Shown here piece after piece: positions 34,708-44,764 of a stretch of DNA of 64,000 bases. The position numbers and the translations under genes are program-made. This DNA comes from an uncultured Verrucomicrobiae bacterium. Its GTDB lineage: Bacteria; Verrucomicrobiota; Verrucomicrobiia; Chthoniobacterales; JAATET01. Position 1 is the first letter of the stretch. Every line of letters starts with the position of its first letter. The notes under the pieces were generated by a model that had not been told where the DNA came from, ran no database searches, and saw nothing but the letters and a program-made list of their open reading frames with translations. The stretch lies in contig CAVRCI010000008.1 of the NCBI GenBank assembly GCA_963719495.1, positions 1 through 64,000 of the forward strand, written 5' to 3'.

Positions 34708-37700
34708 TTACTTCTTTTTGCGGGTGGCGATTGTTGCTGTGGCGGCGGTTAGGAGGAGGATGAGGATGGCGTGGGTGGGGTGGGTGGTCGTTTTCGGCTC
34801 GAGGTCGAGTTCGAGGGTGAGGGGGGTGGCTTCGTTGACTTGGATGCTTCTCGTGAAGGTGATGATTTTTCCGGCTTCCGGGATGGTGACGTCGATGGCG
34901 CCGGGGGCGGGTTCGGTGGCGAGTTGTTGCTCGACGATGCGGTCGGCGATGCCGCGGAGGGCGGTGTTCTCTTCAATCGTGTTGCCCAGGAGGAGCTGGT
35001 CCATCTGCTGGGGATCGTAGCCGGTGCCGCCTTGCATGAAGGGGTTGGCGTTGGCGGCTTGCTCGAGCTGCTCGTTGCGTTCGGTGACGGTGGCGCGGTT
35101 GTCCAAGTAGAGTCGCTGGCGGCGGGTGTTGAGGCCGACGACGGCTTGCTGGGTGAGGAGGGATTTTAATTGGACGCGGGCGTCTTCGTTGGTGGCCTCG
35201 TCGAGGGCGAAATTGTTGGCGGCTTTGCCGAGGGCTTCGCCGGCTTCCTGCTGCCTCCCTTGTTCAATGAGCGTGTTCGCTTTTTCGATGAGGGCGTTGG
35301 CGCGTTTGGCTTCGTCGGTGCGGGCGCTGGTCGATTGGGTCTGGTATTTCTCGAGGCCCCAGGAGCGGGTGGCGGTTTCTTCCTGGAGGCGGAGGCCGCC
35401 TTCGTAGTCGGCGAGGTCGGTGCCGGGCGGGAGGATGACGCGCCAGGTGACGTCGACGAGGGGGACGTCGAGGTTGGGGCCGAGGAGGTCGATCTTGGAA
35501 CGCGACGAAGCGGGGACGGAGTAGACGAGGCGAACGCGGGCGGAGCGGTCGGCGTCGGAATTCGGTGAGACGCTGAGGAGGGTGGCGTCTTCGGCGCGAA
35601 CGACGGCCACGCTCTGGTCGTTGACGAAGGCGCTGAAGAGTTGGGCGTCGGGCGGGAGCTGGACGCGGAGGGAACTTTTCTCGACGACTTCGACGTCGAG
35701 TGCGACGGCGTTGAGGGTGGGGCCGAGCGGGGAGACGAGGGTGGTGAGGTCGGCCCGCGTGACGCGGAGGCGGAGGGCGTCGGCGAGGTCGTGGCGCTCG
35801 ACGCGGACCGTGAGGGGACCTTCGGGTTCGGCGACGCGGTAGCAGAGCGTCGGGATGCCGCGGTCGGTGGGGTTCTGGAGATCGGGCGGGACGGCGCTCC
35901 AATCGGCGCGTTGCCAGCCGCGCGGGACGGTGGCGGCGGCAAGTTCGACGCGACCGTCGGCGCGGACCGCCACCGTTTGGGTGACTTGCCGGGTGGCTTC
36001 GAAGGTGGGGACGCCGATGGATTCGAGGCCTTGGTCGCGGTCGGTCTGGGCCTGGAATTCGATCTGGACGTCGGTGGTGCCGATGATGCCGCGCTCGAAG
36101 CGGATCTCCCAGAGGTCGGGGGCGTCGGGGAGTTGGACGAGGTCGTTGACGGCGGGGCCGGTGGCTCGGACGGTCGCGGCCTGGGCCTCGGTGAGGCCCG
36201 GGAGGTGGAGGCGGAGGGTTTTCACGGCGGCGTTCTCGACGCGATAGGCGAGGGCCAGGCGGGTGAGGGTTTGGCCTTCGCGGAGGGTGACGTCCTGGAG
36301 GGTCTCGACGGTGACCCACGGGTCGAGGGCTTCGATGCCGAGCGTGAGGCTCCAATTTTCCTGGAGCAGGCGGAACGCGAGGGCGCCGGCGCGGGTCTCG
36401 CCGGCGGCGCGCGAGTCGAGTTGGGAGACGTTTTCGCGGTCGACTTCGCGGAGGCGGAGGCCCGGCTCGGGGACGAGGATGAGTTCGCCGGTCTGGCGGG
36501 TGGCCTCGCGGAGGAGGAGGCGCGGGACGGGCCAGGACGCTTGGGCGGCGGGGGCGGGGCCGACGAGGGTGAGGGCGAAGGCCTGGTCGCCGAGGGTGCG
36601 GCCGTTGAGTTGGAGGGTCACGACGCGGTCGGCTTGGGTCCATTGGCTGAGAGCCGGGCCGCTGATGGCTTCGACTTCGAGATCGGCGGGGAGGACGAAG
36701 CTGAGGCTGAAGAGTCCGGCGCGGGTGATCGAAACTTTCAAATCGGCGGCGAGGACGAGACGGTCGTCACCGAACGAGAAGACCTGACGGCTGACGGCGC
36801 GGACCTCGGGCGCGACCGGGGCGACGCGGAGGGTGATCTCGTCGCCCGCGGCTCCGGTGCGGAAGACGTTCTGGAGGGTGGCGAGGGGTTGGCCGTCCTT
36901 TGATTTCGGGAGGAGGGTGTCGTCGAAGTCCTGGAGGTTGACGGGGGTGGGACCCCGGACGTTTTCCGGCTGGGCTTCGCCGCCGAAAGCGAGCGCGATC
37001 ATGCCGACCTCACCCTCGGCGGCGGGGATGCGAAGCGGGGCGACCGTGAGATCGACCGGGAGGTCGGCCGTGCCACGTTGGGTCTCGACGTCGAAGGTGA
37101 AGGTGTCCGTTTGGGCCGGGGTGATCTCGACGTGGAGGCGGTGGCTGGCGGGGTCGAAGCGCCAGGCGGTGACGGGGCCGTTGGTGACGTCGCCGACGGT
37201 GAAGGCGGGCGGGACGGTGATTTCGAGGGTGGTGACCTGACCCTGGACGGGGCGGATGGTGAAGCGGCTGGTGCCGCTGACGACGCCGGGGGCGGGGACG
37301 AAGAGCTGGTCGGCTTCGACGAAGAATTCCGTCGCCTCGGCGGCGGTGTCGCGGGTGCGGGTGCGGACGTGGATGACCGGGTTGCCGCCGGGTTGGAGGA
37401 CGAGGGTCGCGCCGCTGGCGTCGGCGGGGAGGTCGGTGCGGGGTTGGACGCTCACGGCGGCGGGCGAGGTGAATTCCCAGCCGTTTTCGTCGAGGCGGAC
37501 GGTGACGCGTTGGACCGCGGCGGGGCCGGTGACGAGGGGGAGGCCCTTGGTGAGATCGGGGACGGGGAGTTCGAACGTGGCGCGGGCGGTGAAGGTGCCG
37601 TCGCGGTCGAGGGCGACGAAGTAGTCGGTTGCATCGCCGCGCGGGACCTTGGTGACACGGAGGCCTTCGGGGGCCTCGAACGCAATGAGGGTGGCGGGGG

Positions 37701-40700
37701 GACGGAGGAGGAGGAAGGTGTCCCCGGCGACGCCGCGGACCTGGAGGTCGATCTCGCCGGTGAGGCGACCGTCGGCGAGGGTCCAGGACTGGACGAGGGA
37801 TTGGGCGGGCGGCGGCTCGGCGGCGAAGGCAAACGCGGTGACGCCGAGGATGAGGATCGCGGTGGCGGCGGTGGTTGAGGGCTTGCGAATCCAGCGGAGG
37901 AGGGTGGGCAGGAGGAGGATCGCGAAGACGGCGAGGGCGAGGGCGAGAAAGAAGGCGGCGGCTCCGCCGCGCTGGATCAGGAGGCCGAAGGTGAGGAGGG
38001 CGGTGGCGGCGGGGATGATCCAGCGTCCGCGTCGGAAGATGGCGAAGCCGAAGAGGCCGAGGCCCGCGAGGGCGGAGGCGATGCCGGCGGGCGAGATCAT
38101 CGCGCGGGTCGAGGTGACGTTGCCGAGCTCGACGGTCGCGGTCTCGCCGGCCGGGATGACGGTGGCCGAGTAGGTGAGGGTGGCGCGGTTGGGCAGGCGG
38201 TCCTGGGTGGCGCGGAGGGTGAGCGCGAGGGCGGCGAGGAGGACGCCGAGGGCGACGACGAAGCCGACGATGGTGAGGGTGGTCGATCCTCCGCGGAGCA
38301 GGAAGGTGGCGGCGGCGAGGGCGGCGAGGAGGAGGAGGGCGGGGCCGGCGGCGCGGGTGGCGAGCCATTCGAAACCGGTCTCGGTGAGGACGGGGCGGGT
38401 GAGTTGAGCGGTGCCGCCGCGGGGGACGAGGAGCTGACCCGGGTCGCCGGTGACGGTCCACTCGCTGATGACGGTGGGACTCGCGGCGGCGGGGGCGGTG
38501 AGGGTGGGCGCGGCCGGATCGGCGGCGGTCTGGCCGAGGCGGAGGGTGACCTCGACGGGTTCGTTGGGGTCGAGGCGAGGGGGGAGCGGGATGAGGGTGG
38601 CGGGGCCGTCGACCTGGGCGCTGACGATCTGGCCGTCGGCGCGGGCTTCCCAGAGGTTCACCGATTCGGGGAGGACGAGCCGGAGCGCCTGGCGGCCGCG
38701 GGTTTTCACGAAGTAGCGGACGTCGGTGACGGCCTGGCCGTCGCGGGAGACGCGGGTGGTGAGGGCGGCGAAGTCGACGAGCTGATCGACGGTGTTGGCG
38801 GGGTCATACCACTCGATGGCGAGGGCGAGGTCGAAGGGGCGGGCGGTGTATTGGTAGACGGCGAGGGTGGGGGCGCTGCTGAGGAGGCGGAACTCGGTGG
38901 GGAGTTCGAGCGGTTCGAGCGGGAGGAGGGCGCCGTCGGCGGTGGTCACGTTGGATTTGACCTGGAGGGGGCTGACGACCTGGACGTAACCGCGTTCGCC
39001 CTGGACGCCGAGCGGGCGGACTTCGCCGGGGTGGATCGTGCCGCCGCGGGCGCTGAGGGGTTGTTCGAACGTGACGAGGAGGGTGGCGGCTCCGAGGACG
39101 GGTTGGTGGAGGGAGACGATGACCTCGTCGCCTTCGCGCCGCCAGTCGCGGCGGACGTTCTGGCCGATGACGTCGATGTTGCCGGCGGTGGGTGGGACGG
39201 CGATCCGCCATTCGTTGGCGGGGGCGCCGACGACGAAGTAATTGAGCAGGATGCTGGCGGAGACGGTGCCTTCGCGGAGGGAGTAGAGGTGGAAGACGTC
39301 GGCTTGGACGCTGCGGCTGAGGGCCTCGACGGCGAGGGTGGCGGTCCAGCCGGGTTCACGTTGGCGGAAGGCCTGCTGGAGGCCGGGGACCTGCTTCGGG
39401 AAGAGGCTGAGCGGCTGCTCGGCGAGGTTTTCGGTCGAGCCGGGGAGGACGCGGAAACCGGGGGTGGTGACGACGCCGAGGTGGCCGCGGACGGAGCGTG
39501 CGCCGGGGTAGCCGAGGGGCGGGAGGGTCCAGTCACCGGCGGCGGTGGGTTCGTTGCGTTCGAGGCGGAGGCGGACGAGCTGGCGGCCTTCGACGGCGGT
39601 GTCGAAAAGGATCTTGAGGACGCGGCGGCCGTCGGTGGTGTCGGTCTCGGCGACGTAATCGGCGACGCTGGCTCCGGTGGCGGCGACGACGGCGTAGTCG
39701 GCGGGGATGGTGAGGGACCATTCGCGGAGGGGGGCTTCGCGGATGTCGAGTTCGAGGTCGGCGGTGAGGACGCGGTCGGTGGGGGTCAATTCGTAGAGGA
39801 CGATCTGGGAGACGCCGACCTCGGGGAGGATCTGGTTGGCGACGATCTGGTAGGCGTAGTTGGCGGAGGGGAAGCGGTAGACGAAGACCTGGCGGGGGGT
39901 GGGTTCGAGGGCGGGGCCGGGGAACTGGGAGGGGGCGAGTTGGAGGAGGCCGGTGGTGGTGGCGATTTCGAGGCGGACGGCTCCGTCGTTGCTGACGCGG
40001 ACGGTGCCGGAATGGCGGACGCCGCCTTCGGGGGTGAGGCGGAGCGGGGCGGTGGTGACCGGGAACGTGCCGAGCGGGGACTGGCTGCGGACGACGAGGG
40101 AGCCGGTGCGCTCCATCGGGCGGCTGAGGCGGACTTCGAGGACGCGGCGGTCGCCGTCGGGGACGACCTGCCAGGCGAGGACGTTCGTGCCTTCGACGCC
40201 GAGGATCTCGCCGGGACCATCGAGGGCGAGACGGACGGCGGGGAGTTTGCCCTGGAGGACGCGGAAGTCGACGCGGGCGGTTTGGCGGAGGAGTCCGGCG
40301 CCGACCCGGACGTCGGTCTGCTCGTGGCTGGTGAACGAGAGGGCGTCGGCGCCGGTCTCGCGGGTCTGACGCCAACCGAGGGCGGCGTGGCCGTCGGCGG
40401 CGAGGAAGCCGCGGTGGGAGTCGGCGTCGGGGACGACGGCGGCTCGCGGGTCGAAGGTGACGGGGGTGGGGAGGCCTTCGATGACGAGCGGGACGATCGC
40501 GCCGGCGGGGAGGCGGAAGTCGAGGGACTTCCATTCGCCGTCGCGGACGGCGGCGGCGAAGCGGAGGTCGACGGGGAAGACGCCGGGCTGGTCGAAGACG
40601 AGGGTGAGCGTGGAGTCGGCGAGTTCGACGTGAAAGTTGTCGTTGGCGGCGGGGTCGGTGAGGGCGGCGTGGCCGCCGAGGAGGGGGAGGCGGGCGTTGG

Positions 40701-41502
40701 GTTCGCGGACGAGGGCGGCTCCGGTGAGGCGGAAATTCACGCAGCCCGCGACGGGGTCGTAGCGGCCGGTGAGTTGGGTTCCGATGAGGTCGGCGGGCGC
40801 GAGGGCGGCTCCGCGCGGGGTGAGGCGGACTTCGAGGGTGGCGGCGGTGGTGCCGGTAAATTGTTGGTCGCGGTGGGGGTCGGTGGGGGCAGGTTGGGAG
40901 GGCGGGGATTGGGATTCGGTGGTTTCGGGGAGGGGGCCGAGGGGTTGGAGTCCGTCGGCGCGGGTGGCGCGGACGTCGACGCCGGGGCCGGGGACGAGGC
41001 GGATCGTGGAGGCGAAGCCGACGGCTTCGCCGGGGGCGAGCGTGGGGAGGGTGACGGTGGAGGGGATGATTGGGTCGGCGGTGCGGAGGGTGATCGTGAC
41101 GGTGAGGGTCTCCGGGGCGGGGCCGTCTTCGGTGAGGGTGGGTCGGAGGTCGAGGTAACGGTGGCCGTCGGCGTGGCGGACGGACCAGTCGCGGAGGCCG
41201 GGGCCGGTGACGGTGGTGACTTCGCCGGTGCCGTCGAGGCCGAGGGTGAGGGTTTCGGGGCGGCCTTGGAGAACGCGGAGGGTGGCGGTGATGGTGGTGG
41301 TGATCGTGGCGGTGTCGAGGTGGGTGGTGGCCTCGGCGGTGGCGGTGAAGAAGAGCGGCGGGGCCGGGGTGACTCTTTCGGCTTCGACGATGAGGAGGCC
41401 TTCGGGGGTGGTGAGGGGGGTGAGGGGTTGGGCGGCTTGGGTGGGGGTGAGGAGGGTGGTGGTGATTAGCGTTAGGAGCGCGAGGAGGATGGTTGGTTTC
41501 AT
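34708..41502 (-). CDS. Giant (2264 aa) exported/membrane protein with repeated beta modules, function unknown
   Basis: Uninterrupted ORF with host codon bias, signal peptide, central TM cluster, C-terminal TM plus RKKK. Confidence 0.9.
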   Translation of the reverse strand: MKPTILLALLTLITTTLLTPTQAAQPLTPLTTPEGLLIVEAERVTPAPPLFFTATAEATTHLDTATITTTITATLRVLQGRPETLTLGLDGTGEVTTVTGPGLRDWSVRHADGHRYLDLRPTLTEDGPAPETLTVTITLRTADPIIPSTVTLPTLAPGEAVGFASTIRLVPGPGVDVRATRADGLQPLGPLPETTESQSPPSQPAPTDPHRDQQFTGTTAATLEVRLTPRGAALAPADLIGTQLTGRYDPVAGCVNFRLTGAALVREPNARLPLLGGHAALTDPAANDNFHVELADSTLTLVFDQPGVFPVDLRFAAAVRDGEWKSLDFRLPAGAIVPLVIEGLPTPVTFDPRAAVVPDADSHRGFLAADGHAALGWRQTRETGADALSFTSHEQTDVRVGAGLLRQTARVDFRVLQGKLPAVRLALDGPGEILGVEGTNVLAWQVVPDGDRRVLEVRLSRPMERTGSLVVRSQSPLGTFPVTTAPLRLTPEGGVRHSGTVRVSNDGAVRLEIATTTGLLQLAPSQFPGPALEPTPRQVFVYRFPSANYAYQIVANQILPEVGVSQIVLYELTPTDRVLTADLELDIREAPLREWSLTIPADYAVVAATGASVADYVAETDTTDGRRVLKILFDTAVEGRQLVRLRLERNEPTAAGDWTLPPLGYPGARSVRGHLGVVTTPGFRVLPGSTENLAEQPLSLFPKQVPGLQQAFRQREPGWTATLAVEALSRSVQADVFHLYSLREGTVSASILLNYFVVGAPANEWRIAVPPTAGNIDVIGQNVRRDWRREGDEVIVSLHQPVLGAATLLVTFEQPLSARGGTIHPGEVRPLGVQGERGYVQVVSPLQVKSNVTTADGALLPLEPLELPTEFRLLSSAPTLAVYQYTARPFDLALAIEWYDPANTVDQLVDFAALTTRVSRDGQAVTDVRYFVKTRGRQALRLVLPESVNLWEARADGQIVSAQVDGPATLIPLPPRLDPNEPVEVTLRLGQTAADPAAPTLTAPAAASPTVISEWTVTGDPGQLLVPRGGTAQLTRPVLTETGFEWLATRAAGPALLLLAALAAATFLLRGGSTTLTIVGFVVALGVLLAALALTLRATQDRLPNRATLTYSATVIPAGETATVELGNVTSTRAMISPAGIASALAGLGLFGFAIFRRGRWIIPAATALLTFGLLIQRGGAAAFFLALALAVFAILLLPTLLRWIRKPSTTAATAILILGVTAFAFAAEPPPAQSLVQSWTLADGRLTGEIDLQVRGVAGDTFLLLRPPATLIAFEAPEGLRVTKVPRGDATDYFVALDRDGTFTARATFELPVPDLTKGLPLVTGPAAVQRVTVRLDENGWEFTSPAAVSVQPRTDLPADASGATLVLQPGGNPVIHVRTRTRDTAAEATEFFVEADQLFVPAPGVVSGTSRFTIRPVQGQVTTLEITVPPAFTVGDVTNGPVTAWRFDPASHRLHVEITPAQTDTFTFDVETQRGTADLPVDLTVAPLRIPAAEGEVGMIALAFGGEAQPENVRGPTPVNLQDFDDTLLPKSKDGQPLATLQNVFRTGAAGDEITLRVAPVAPEVRAVSRQVFSFGDDRLVLAADLKVSITRAGLFSLSFVLPADLEVEAISGPALSQWTQADRVVTLQLNGRTLGDQAFALTLVGPAPAAQASWPVPRLLLREATRQTGELILVPEPGLRLREVDRENVSQLDSRAAGETRAGALAFRLLQENWSLTLGIEALDPWVTVETLQDVTLREGQTLTRLALAYRVENAAVKTLRLHLPGLTEAQAATVRATGPAVNDLVQLPDAPDLWEIRFERGIIGTTDVQIEFQAQTDRDQGLESIGVPTFEATRQVTQTVAVRADGRVELAAATVPRGWQRADWSAVPPDLQNPTDRGIPTLCYRVAEPEGPLTVRVERHDLADALRLRVTRADLTTLVSPLGPTLNAVALDVEVVEKSSLRVQLPPDAQLFSAFVNDQSVAVVRAEDATLLSVSPNSDADRSARVRLVYSVPASSRSKIDLLGPNLDVPLVDVTWRVILPPGTDLADYEGGLRLQEETATRSWGLEKYQTQSTSARTDEAKRANALIEKANTLIEQGRQQEAGEALGKAANNFALDEATNEDARVQLKSLLTQQAVVGLNTRRQRLYLDNRATVTERNEQLEQAANANPFMQGGTGYDPQQMDQLLLGNTIEENTALRGIADRIVEQQLATEPAPGAIDVTIPEAGKIITFTRSIQVNEATPLTLELDLEPKTTTHPTHAILILLLTAATATIATRKKK

Positions 41503-41596
41503 GGGTTGGCGGGCGGTTTTCGTTTGGAAATGTCCGGCGGGGCCGGATTGGGTTGGGTCGGCGATTGCAAATCGCCGCTCCTTGAAGCTGGGTCGG

Positions 41597-43981
41597 CTAG
41601 TTTTTTCGGGACTCCAACATTTGGGTTAGGGTTTGAACGCGGGCTTGGTTTGGAAAGGCTTGGCGGAGGTTCGTGATGGTTGGGGTTAAGCTTTCCAGGT
41701 CGACTCGTTCGTCGCCTCTGAGGTGGTCGGCTAGGAGGGTGGCGGCTCCAGCTAGTTGGATGCTTGGGGAGGCCTGGTCGAAGGTTGGGGCGTTGGGGTC
41801 GTAGGGGATCGTCCAGGAGCGCTCGACCATCTGGTCGGTGGCGGGGTCGCGGAAGCGGACGAAGACTTCGCCGACTTCGCCGCGGCCTTCGGGGATGGGT
41901 TCGATCTGGTAGAGGGCGACGCCGGCTTCTTCGGCGGAGAGTTCGGCGGCGTCGACCTGGTCGTTGCGGAAGTCTTCGGCTTTTAATCGGTGTTCGTCGA
42001 AGCCGAGGAGGCGGTAGCGGGCGACGCGGTCGGGGTTGAAGACGACCTGGACTTTGACGTTCTCGGCGGCGGGGCGGAGGGCGCCGGCGAGTTGGCGCGC
42101 GAAGTTGGCTTCGGCGTCCTGGGGAGTGTTGAGGAAGTAGTAGCGGCCGTCGCCGCGGCGGGTGAGGGCTTCGAGGATGGTGTCGTTGAGGCCCTTGGCT
42201 CCGACCCCGGCGGCGTCGAAGGAGATGCCAAGCTGGCGGGTCTTCGTGACCCCGGCGGCGAGACGGTCGGGGTCGGCGTCGCCGAGGTTGGCGGCTCCGT
42301 CGGTGAGGAGGACGATGCGGTTCTGGGCGGCGGGCAGGAATTGCTTGGTGGCGAGTTCCGAGGCGAGGGCGAGGGCGGTCTCGAGGTTGGTGCCGCCGGC
42401 GGCTGGGGTGCGGGCGGCGATGTCGGCGAGCTGGGCGGCTTGGTCGCCGGGGACGTTCTCGGCGAGGAGGCGGGGGGTGCGGGCGAAGCCGACGAGGTTG
42501 ACGCGGTCGTCGGGGCCGAGCTGGGGGGCGAGCGTTTCGAGGGCTTGGCGGACGGTGGCGGCGCGGTCGGCGCGCTCCATCGAGCCGGAGGTGTCGAGGA
42601 GGAAGGTGAGGCGGAGCGGTTGACCCGTGGCGCGACCGGCGGCGGCGACTTTGACGGCGATGCGGACGAGATTGCGTTGCTGGAGGAACGGGTGGGCGCT
42701 CTGCTCGACGCGGCAGGCGACGGGTTCGCCAGCGGCGGGTGACGGGTCGTTGTAGTCGAAGGCGTTGGTGAACTCCTCGGGGCGGATGCGGGCGGGGTCG
42801 GGGGCCTCGCCGCGGGCCAAGGCGTCGGCGGCGAGCTGGAAGGAAACGTCGCCAACGTGGAGGGAGAAGGTTGAGATGGGTTCGTCGGCGGTGAGGGTTT
42901 CCGACTGGAAAGGGGCCTGCTTGGTCTTGGAAAGCTCGGATTTGCGTCCGATCTCGTCGACGACCGAGTCCAGATCCATCTTGAGTTCGTCCTCGGGGGG
43001 CGAAACGTCGACGCCGCGGAACATGTAGACGGAGTCCCAGCCGGTCGAGAGGTCGGCGTTCCAAAATTGGTCGTCCTTTGCGTCGATAGCGGACTTGTCG
43101 ACGATGGTGGTTCGGCTTTCTCCGATCGTGACCGCCCGCCCTCGTGCGTCGATTTCACGGGAAGCTGACGGCGCGGCGGGGCGAGCTGTTTGCGAGAGGA
43201 TGGGCTGATTAATGACATCTCCAGGAACTCCTTCGACGGGCACAATCGGACTGCCGTAGTTGATAAAGCCTTCGAATTCGGGCGCGGGGCCCGCGCCATT
43301 CTGGGCTGCGGCTAGGTTTCGCGAAGGGAGTTGTTCGGCGATTTCGTCCGCGAGGAGTTGCTCTTCCAAAACGCTGCTGGATCGGGATCTTTCCGCTCTT
43401 GCGATGTCCTTCGAGGCGGGAGCCGCAGGGGTGTTCATCGCCATGAGTTCCGAGGTGGGAGTTCGCTCGCTTGCTGTGAACCCGGATCCGTTTTCTCGGT
43501 TCGTGAAAGCTTCGTCGACGAAGCCCCCTTCGCCGCCTTCGAAGTCGGCTGGTCCCTGAACAGTTTGTCGCGTCGTGGTCGTCAGAAGCGGGATCGCGAT
43601 CGCCGTGACGATGAGGCAGGCGGCTAGGGGGACGAGGATGCGGGGGGTCGACCAGTTGCGCCGAGTGGGCGAGAGGACGCGGACGGTTTCGCTTGGTTCG
43701 GCGGTGACGGTGCCGATGGCGGCGAGGAGTTGGGCGCGGCGGTCGGGAGCGAGGCGGAGGGGTTCGGCGTCGGGGTGGGTGGCGGTGCCGACGAGGTCGT
43801 GGATGGCGGTGATGCGGCGACGGAAGAGGGCGAGCTCGGGGTTGTCCGCGAGGTGGCGGTCGAGTTCGGCGGCCTCGAAGGCGGAGGTCTCGCCGAGGAC
43901 GTGGGCGACGACGCGGGCTTCGAGGGCGGGGTCGATCCAGGGCTGGGGTTGATTTTCGTCGTTGGGGTTCATGGTGTTCAC
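41597..43981 (-). CDS. Anti-sigma-like N-terminus, TM, linker, then YfbK/vWA(DUF3520) domains
   Basis: STFSLHVGDVSF, RPEEFTNAF, MIDAS DTSGS, LLTDG, YRLLGFD, VDAAE. Confidence 0.9.
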   Translation of the reverse strand: MNTMNPNDENQPQPWIDPALEARVVAHVLGETSAFEAAELDRHLADNPELALFRRRITAIHDLVGTATHPDAEPLRLAPDRRAQLLAAIGTVTAEPSETVRVLSPTRRNWSTPRILVPLAACLIVTAIAIPLLTTTTRQTVQGPADFEGGEGGFVDEAFTNRENGSGFTASERTPTSELMAMNTPAAPASKDIARAERSRSSSVLEEQLLADEIAEQLPSRNLAAAQNGAGPAPEFEGFINYGSPIVPVEGVPGDVINQPILSQTARPAAPSASREIDARGRAVTIGESRTTIVDKSAIDAKDDQFWNADLSTGWDSVYMFRGVDVSPPEDELKMDLDSVVDEIGRKSELSKTKQAPFQSETLTADEPISTFSLHVGDVSFQLAADALARGEAPDPARIRPEEFTNAFDYNDPSPAAGEPVACRVEQSAHPFLQQRNLVRIAVKVAAAGRATGQPLRLTFLLDTSGSMERADRAATVRQALETLAPQLGPDDRVNLVGFARTPRLLAENVPGDQAAQLADIAARTPAAGGTNLETALALASELATKQFLPAAQNRIVLLTDGAANLGDADPDRLAAGVTKTRQLGISFDAAGVGAKGLNDTILEALTRRGDGRYYFLNTPQDAEANFARQLAGALRPAAENVKVQVVFNPDRVARYRLLGFDEHRLKAEDFRNDQVDAAELSAEEAGVALYQIEPIPEGRGEVGEVFVRFRDPATDQMVERSWTIPYDPNAPTFDQASPSIQLAGAATLLADHLRGDERVDLESLTPTITNLRQAFPNQARVQTLTQMLESRKN

Positions 43982-44565: not shown

Positions 44566-44764
44566 GGATCCGGGGAGGATGTCGGCCTCCTGTTTATCAA
44601 GACACGCGGGGCGTGGCTTTCTTAGAATTTAGTTTCTGGGGGGGGTTGGGGGAGCTGCTGATTGGTGATTGGTGAGGGGATTTGTTCGGCTTTGCCGAAT
44701 TTGGTTGGGTCGGCGATTTCGAAATCGCCGCTCCTTGAGCTGGCTTGGTAGGGTTTTACCCGCA

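Follow-up and report, generated by a model that had tools for sequence, protein, structure and literature searches.

In a 64,000-nucleotide stretch of DNA from an uncultured Verrucomicrobiae bacterium (Chthoniobacterales; assembly GCA_963719495.1, contig CAVRCI010000008.1, positions 1 to 64,000, hereafter the window), the gene for a putative membrane-anchored anti-sigma factor, here called the sensor, encodes a long periplasmic linker in which pieces of four envelope proteins encoded elsewhere in the genome sit in frame, LptA being a probable one. A sequence-only reading of the window had described this linker as a mosaic of captured envelope-protein peptides, and this is borne out both by donors in the own genome and by the shuffled linkers of homologous sensors. 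Our reading, which we hold to be evenly balanced between right and wrong, is that the linker is a self-peptide bait, an integrated decoy on an anti-sigma factor, whose cleavage would free the sigma factor. Coordinates are collected in Table 1.

We searched the linker against all six-frame open reading frames (ORFs) of its own genome (G000). Both peptides to which the sequence-only reading drew attention are where it put them, in frame on the minus strand within ORF 41597-43981: WNADLSTGWDSVYMFRGVD occupies exactly 43007-43063, and EFEGFINYGSPI is followed in the protein by VINQPILS. The search returned significant secretin and barrel matches, as that reading had anticipated. Combined, the two secretin pieces gave E 5e-6 and 1e-5 against two tandem secretins (G000:C2:216190-218781 and 213573-216170), and a variable loop that lies between both segments in the donor is short in the linker. 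One of the two secretins was scanned and belongs to the Amuc_1098 family (NF042912, 857 bits against a cut-off of 750), so that the proposed likeness to verrucomicrobial secretins was right. The barrel piece comes from the N-terminus of the mature product of G000:C6:115078-116001, which has a signal peptide and is classed as a beta-barrel from Atlas features; it has no Pfam (E <= 1) or NCBIfam match, PF09694 included, and its nearest Atlas clusters are beta-barrels, one of them 35% Gcw_chp (PF09694). This peptide had been likened to TorF-like porins, which we take to be the Gcw_chp porins: its origin in an outer-membrane barrel stands, while the name TorF-like, with no PF09694 match, remains only a lead.

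Two further pieces complete the set. The first, overlooked by the sequence-only reading, comes from a DUF4159 protein anchored in the membrane (G000:C15:69886-71169, PF13709), of which it represents the juxtamembrane segment. The second, at 43097-43147, is probably, with moderate confidence, the C-terminal end of LptA, whose gene lies in a kdsA-lptC-lptA-lptB cluster (G000:C7; PF03968). An LptA profile built from four of the six fetched orthologues gave an independent E-value (iE) of 9e-4, the top three matches being three orthologues, and the DNA of this piece in genome G004 is 85% identical over 34 nt; a weak alignment of the same stretch with the barrel N-terminus was also obtained. Host outer-membrane genes had been proposed as the source, which holds for the secretins and the barrel but not for the DUF4159 protein, anchored in the inner membrane, nor probably for LptA, nor for the lipoproteins found as donors in homologues. 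As a side observation, the DUF4159 protein resembles the TonB/TolA energy transducers in that its membrane helix contains an SxxxH motif and its linker is rich in Pro and Thr; against TIGR02794 it reached only E 0.047.

Such a combination was not obtained by chance. Of 900 random 221-residue segments taken from a crude call of 2060 genes, not one contained three such short matches and seven contained two, six of these through long paralogue matches and the seventh being drawn from the sensor gene itself. When the donors were in turn searched against the genome, only the sensor, apart from paralogues, was found to carry them. The linker also differs in composition from its surroundings, as had been noticed from the sequence: 71 of its 221 codons end in A or T, whereas the flanks have 80 such codons in 573 (Fisher P 1.9e-8). 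The captured pieces (24/79) are like the rest of the linker in this respect, and both are above the donor genes (19-24%); therefore the bias marks the whole linker, and codon bias was ruled out as a fingerprint of the donors. In the AlphaFold model, residues 135-337 and 339-354 have a predicted local distance difference test score (pLDDT) below 50, consistent with disorder.

The mosaic extends to homologous sensors. The set used here is the best 120 homologues listed, the window's own copy dropped and the query kept, with heads 63-87% identical and linkers of 144-799 aa in those keeping the N-terminal domain. At E <= 1e-3, 62 of the 120 linkers match an ORF of G000, compared to 1/120 in each of two runs with shuffled linkers. 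The recurring donors are secretins (52 linkers), the barrel (14), the DUF4159 protein (10) and a group of small lipoprotein-like proteins that share a C-terminal motif (11-15); matches confined to single linkers include autotransporter-repeat proteins, and three of them were judged to be chance. In another 33 linkers the piece is the front of a TonB-dependent receptor of a type that family f19 genomes have in many copies. This set has no member in common with the 62, so that 93/120 linkers have a donor. Donor profiles gave higher counts (secretin 70, DUF4159 33, barrel 17), with 0/600 among shuffles, the secretin shuffles being run with default filters. Where at least four motif types are present, their order differs in 22/22 linkers. 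The homologue alignment thus agrees with the proposed hypervariability of the linker, with different pieces in different orders.

Several side observations concern these donors. Three linkers (P0033, P0061 and P0162) singly match other envelope-type genes of G000, C13:426280 (E 3e-11), C2:444888 (E 2e-5) and C1:138213 (E 6e-17). The small lipoprotein-like proteins G000:C13:16945-17916, C2:73452-73901 and C4:143092-144663 have in common a 45-residue C-terminal motif, for which the two proteins scanned gave no Pfam match; the motif is found fused to a short secretin-like protein too, and 10-15 sensor linkers have captured it. The metagenomic members L228, L261, L270, L277, L256, L255 and L262 probably hold captures as well, judged by eye on VVTGSR (TonB-box-like), GGVVGG and LQSLGY, putative labels to which Pfam gave no support where scanned.

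One alternative explanation of such a mosaic would be tolerated junk, a disordered linker collecting fragments of abundant genes by illegitimate recombination that then decay. We consider this improbable. It would fit the visible decay and turnover, the lack of conservation of order and content, the relaxed codon use and the multicopy state of SusC and TonB-dependent receptor genes, but the captures are selective. Every donor that recurs in at least two linkers is an exported or envelope protein, compared to about 27% of genes having an N-terminal hydrophobic stretch; cytoplasmic genes contribute no recurring capture to the 120 linkers, and every recurring match is in the coding frame. The barrel, of about 300 residues and encoded by a gene with a single match in its own genome, contributes only its first mature segment, and the DUF4159 protein contributes two stretches. 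Moreover, a second subfamily of sensors, whose head is only about 33% identical, has the same secretin, DUF4159 and barrel pieces, and both secretin-type and receptor-type pieces occur on either side of the long branch between the subfamilies, the only branch used of a tree of 154 of 275 sequences, labelled by regular expressions and midpoint-rooted on an outlier.

Selection at the peptide level also argues against junk. Between pieces and their own donors (13 pieces, 6 genomes), the pooled proportion of synonymous differences (pS) is 0.77 (174 sites) and that of nonsynonymous differences (pN), which is pushed down by picking pieces by similarity, is only 0.18 (630 sites). Between orthologues, pN is 0.23 and 0.15 in pieces and 0.44 and 0.50 in spacers, with pS of about 0.6-0.7. 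Keeping 19 of 22 residues while synonymous sites are near saturation would be hard to achieve neutrally. The sequence-only reading supposed that the sensor samples host genes; as an ongoing capture this was not supported, as the DNA of the pieces is only about 76-88% identical to their own donors, over short stretches and at near-saturated synonymous sites. Comparison of linker DNA with the own genome in G000, G003, G004 and G224 gave no long near-identical match and the own donor was not consistently the best, by which ongoing gene conversion was rejected, and between 42850 and 43700 only short chance repeats were found when a repeat-based signature of capture was sought. The pieces thus appear to be old and conserved as peptides, some of them decaying. 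Lineage is nevertheless imprinted on some: the DUF4159 piece of G005 matches its own donor best, and an ADL variant of the barrel piece is found in the sensors of this genus, in 6/6 barrels of the genus and in 0/5 other barrels. Linker exchange between paralogues may also have taken place.

Related proteins in other phyla point in the same direction. From 80 named genome loci, 60 were extracted, and 29 regions preceding the vWA domain, biased to long ones, were scanned together with one plasmid protein. Bacteroidota regions carry SusC-type N-terminal or plug domains in 19/19 cases, often split by a spacer, with TIGR04056 in both regions tested; the cyanobacterial ones carry the front of a SomB-type porin (por_somb) in 3/3 (E 1e-21 to 1e-23). 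A carboxypeptidase-regulatory-like domain was found in one acidobacterial region, and a verrucomicrobial one has a helix similar to a pilin N-terminus (E 0.003); five scanned regions had no match and one a marginal match. SLH domains are present in a metagenomic member (E 7e-19). Donors follow lineage, whether SusC, por_somb, TonB-dependent receptor fronts or SLH. Because of the captured pieces, automatic names given to these proteins, such as "SusC/RagA receptor", "autotransporter" or "pseudopilin", are misleading.

Such whole SLH and SusC N-terminal domains, together with a TonB-box-like motif in 26/120 linkers (1.2 expected), would suit another explanation, to which we give little credence: the sensor would be fastened by its pieces to the outer membrane, the wall or TonB-type motors (through TonB boxes, SLH domains or secretin rings), and would report the mechanical separation of the layers of the envelope. 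But the pieces of the linker studied here are of 8-22 residues and none is a TonB box, and the TonB-dependent receptor-front profile has no match in the own genome. The sensor does recall the vWA force transducers of bacteria of the Planctomycetes-Verrucomicrobia-Chlamydiae group, which have a membrane helix, a disordered linker and a vWA head in the parts of their description used here (PMC12204202). It differs from them in lacking the SHLS motif with its histidine, its membrane helix being without any His or SxxxH motor motif, and in lacking tolQ/tolR neighbours; it has instead a sigma factor gene and a 2264-aa gene beside it, and a cytoplasmic anti-sigma-like domain.

The reading as a bait receives indirect support from alpha-2-macroglobulins. 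Among proteins of 1568-4475 residues, 316 were matched by a SusC-like stretch taken from a YfbK-type protein of Flavobacterium; the 120 listed were 109 alpha-2-macroglobulins, 6 VIT-vWA proteins and 5 other fusions. In 108 of the 109 listed macroglobulins the piece ends between -20 and +60 residues from the post-bait domain (median 13), as located with a profile built from 58 of them, and the CxEQ motif is kept in 107/109. The E. coli bait residues given in PMC4498604 align directly before this domain, using our own offset between chain and paper numbering. The baits of Bacteroidota macroglobulins carry the same kind of piece as these sensors, and the bait reading is strengthened because this piece sits at the bait position.

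Several results nonetheless weigh against the linker being a bait, or against its kinship with macroglobulin baits. None of 30 verrucomicrobial macroglobulin baits matched the donors of G000, and a TonB-box-like motif was found in only 5/30 (0.2 expected), all five from family f19, with weak profile support (best E 8e-4, 1/1500 shuffles higher). A secretin N-domain piece, searched likewise, found 62 long proteins, none with an A2M domain. Among the homologous linkers, 27/120 have no recognised donor, no captured piece was seen in many short YfbK-type lipoprotein members, and some captures are whole folded domains, which would make poor protease baits. The barrel piece has decayed to 10/22 identical residues in G003, and no recent capture was found in the four genomes compared. 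To these are added the selection of pieces by similarity, mentioned above, and the structural differences from human inhibitors described below.

The 62 long secretin-piece proteins include 33 distant relatives of the window's third operon gene (by BLAST) and one sensor; macroglobulins with donor pieces of G000 were found neither there nor among the 30 baits. The macroglobulin of the own genome gave no match with the four donor profiles. This thioester alpha-2-macroglobulin gene (G000:C13:265173-270871, L291) is split over two frames, the change of frame lying in the bait near a seven-G run, either an assembly error or real slippage.

Table 1. Features of the sensor locus, captured pieces first (positions in the window).
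Feature	Position	Strand	Details
DUF4159 piece, donor's juxtamembrane segment	43508..43567	minus	16/20 identical, E 2e-7; profile iE 1e-7
Secretin piece EFEGFINYGSPI	43244..43279	minus	11/12 identical to donor
Second secretin piece VINQPILS	43193..43216	minus	7/8 identical to donor
Probable LptA C-terminal-end piece	43097..43147	minus	genome profile E 2.4e-4
Barrel piece, N-terminal mature segment of outer-membrane beta-barrel	43004..43069	minus	19/22 identical, E 6e-12
Mosaic linker, periplasmic, disordered, 221 aa	42920..43582	minus	pLDDT < 50
Putative anti-sigma factor gene	41597..43981	minus	794 aa, 791 from ATG; start overlaps sigma stop codon
Cytoplasmic helical anti-sigma-like domain	43712..43972	minus	high-pLDDT helices
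Single transmembrane helix, residues 114-133	43583..43642	minus	hydropathy 2.69
vWF_A + VWA + YfbK_C (DUF3520) head	41600..42898	minus	Pfam
ECF sigma factor, 195 aa	43978..44565	minus	Pfam Sigma70_r2 + r4_2; TIGR02937
ECF-type autoregulatory promoter motif TCTAAGAA-N-GTGTCT	44600..44626	minus	upstream of sigma gene
Internally duplicated membrane protein, 2264 aa, third operon gene	34708..41502	minus	no described family

By its layout, the product of 41597-43981 is a putative anti-sigma factor of the ECF226/ECF289 type (ECF, extracytoplasmic function), matching both groups. In both, as far as the parts of Casas-Pastor et al. 2021 (PMC7826278) used here describe them, the next gene (+1) after the ECF sigma factor encodes a membrane protein with a single helix, vWA and DUF3520, for which an anti-sigma role is predicted. 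ECF226 includes Verrucomicrobia and is listed with no conserved promoter or third gene, while ECF289, listed as 100% Proteobacteria, has a promoter motif (CCCAAGGA / CGTCTxA) that resembles the one found here; the phylum thus points to ECF226 and the promoter to ECF289. These parts do not mention the linker of either group, and they give a vWA-DUF3520 neighbour of ECF255 a carboxypeptidase-regulatory-like domain that is not called captured. In the searched loci of subfamily 1, an ECF sigma factor was matched at E <= 1e-33 in 19/23, several of the remaining loci being short. The N-terminal domain would bind and inhibit the sigma factor, as suggested by the gene order and by weak zf-HC2/RskA_N matches in homologues (Pfam; zf-HC2 E 0.4 here).

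The head is modelled by AlphaFold with high confidence and has an intact metal ion-dependent adhesion site (MIDAS; DTSGS at 42581-42595), whose residues D460, S462, S464, T528 and D558 are invariant across 107 aligned sequences. Its nearest solved folds are ArnA/ArnB (Sec23/24-core-like), two other prokaryotic vWA proteins and human ITIH1 (6fpy, E 3e-14). Two near-identical palindromic repeats (GGCGATT..AATCGCC core; ~41555-41586 and 44707-44739), REP-like by appearance, flank the sigma/anti-sigma pair, and none was seen in the upstream stretches of G003 and G004. Elsewhere in the genome, G000:C7:29817-30050, an independent open frame of 210 aa, has only the C-terminal half of YfbK_C.

The operon would be autoregulated: TCTAAG(G/A)A-N12-GTGTCT precedes the sigma gene in 14/16 orthologous loci, and the own promoter is the top-scoring site of the genome even when left out of the matrix. 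A wider regulon was not supported, as 7 sites exceeded 17 bits compared to 2-19 in column-shuffled controls, only the own promoter being clearly above. The third gene encodes a protein with no Pfam or NCBIfam match, and a fold search with its beta-sandwich model gave only weak matches to ribophorin-I/M1-peptidase sandwiches (template modelling score 0.15). The gene co-occurs with this sensor subfamily, strong matches to both being found in the same 5/41 genomes (4/40 without the unpublished G016). This protein is likely the output of the operon, and induction would mean more sensor and more of the giant protein. Distant relatives of the giant third gene also carry secretin pieces. These relatives (within P0122-P0183) have one or two copies of the secretin periplasmic domains, and some additionally autotransporter repeats, placed at a variable site that follows a beta-sandwich module.

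The regulon bears on a further alternative, which we regard as unlikely, although less so than junk or anchoring. Here the sensor would monitor envelope assembly by mimicry and with no foreign protease: its pieces would bind the cell's own chaperones, assembly machines or unassembled partners through surfaces such as secretin N-domains, the LptA edge strand and barrel strands, and occupancy or competition would alter sensor stability. Several pieces are presumably protein-interaction surfaces or segments buried after assembly, the donors are core envelope proteins, and secretin periplasmic domains make up 200-300 residues in many homologues. Amuc_1098, described as the most abundant outer-membrane protein of Akkermansia in the part of PMC4960237 used here, may also be counted in its favour. 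But the regulon is apparently confined to the operon, which has no chaperone or assembly gene and is patchy in its distribution; one conserved head serves unrelated sets of pieces, and the position of the pieces at macroglobulin baits would be left unexplained.

We therefore return to the self-peptide bait and compare it with known systems, citing their descriptions from partial sources. Like the bait of ECAM/YfhM (type I alpha-2-macroglobulin; PDB 5a42, 4rtd), which is disordered, periplasmic and in ECAM triggered by cleavage (PMC4498604), the linker is disordered, and it is hypervariable between relatives as alpha-2-macroglobulin baits are. The sensor differs in having no MG (macroglobulin) domains, A2M domain or CxEQ thioester (no Pfam match), its output would be transcription and not trapping, and no captured host sequence is described for the ECAM bait in the part of that source used. 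With ITIH4 and ITIH1 it shares a vWA inserted in a beta-sandwich, an intact MIDAS and a long variable region alongside (PMC7793589; PDB 6fpy), and ITIH4 works as a protease bait that is triggered by cleavage and depends on its vWA (PMC7793589). The differences, counted above as unfavourable, are that the sensor has no VIT domain (no PF08487 or PF13757 match), that its linker precedes the vWA while the variable region of ITIH4 comes after it, and that ArnA/ArnB and other vWA-sandwich proteins, which are not inhibitors, are better-scoring fold matches than ITIH1. It is moreover membrane-anchored and fused to an anti-sigma domain, with 16-18% identity to ITIH proteins. By membership, the sensor is thus neither a macroglobulin nor an ITIH, but an ECF226/ECF289-type anti-sigma probably working like a bait-triggered sensor. 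Conceptually it is closest to plant integrated decoys and to the PBS1/RPS5 cleavage decoy, in which the sensor includes copies of attacked host proteins and cleavage of the decoy can be the trigger (PMC10195085, as far as used here); the plant proteins are unrelated, and here many short pieces share one disordered periplasmic tether.

The mechanism that we propose would work as follows. Pieces of exported host proteins were inserted into the disordered periplasmic tether in frame, repeatedly and by lineage, and many have been preserved at the peptide level. A protease or another agent attacking abundant envelope proteins would also cut the pieces in the linker, whether a foreign protease (of a predator, competitor or phage) or an own quality-control enzyme. 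The protease that cuts may be retained by the MIDAS-bearing head, as an analogy with ITIH4 suggests. Upon cleavage, the vWA head would be lost and a site-2 protease would cut the membrane helix (M50 site-2 proteases are present in the genome); the freed ECF sigma factor would induce its own operon and the 2264-aa membrane protein would be made. More tentatively, and as a broader proposal that we think somewhat doubtful, several phyla may keep an envelope self-peptide decoy system on unrelated scaffolds, namely YfbK-type anti-sigmas and lipoproteins, alpha-2-macroglobulins, VIT-vWA proteins and the relatives of the giant third gene, in which pieces of the envelope proteins dominant in each lineage bait the proteases of predators, competitors or phages.

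In the literature searched, chiefly open papers, we came upon neither the mosaic nor its link to macroglobulin baits, and these linkers or baits were nowhere described as holding captured host peptides. The same literature does not describe the signal of vWA-DUF3520 anti-sigmas and of E. coli YfbK, for which the mosaic gives a testable hypothesis, and the sensor family becomes tied to macroglobulin baits by a common design. The secretin, the barrel N-terminus, the LptA end and the TonB box are likely candidates for sites of attack or quality control. If cleavage is the trigger, the linker would be a programmable input for a periplasmic protease sensor. If the decoy reading across several phyla is true, the pieces would be an evolutionary record of attacked envelope segments, and bacteria would have in this sensor, through its output in transcription, a counterpart of the integrated decoys of plants. 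The presence of self-pieces both in a sensor tether and in the baits of protease traps suggests that bacteria use fragments of their own proteins as decoys for sensing attack on the envelope.

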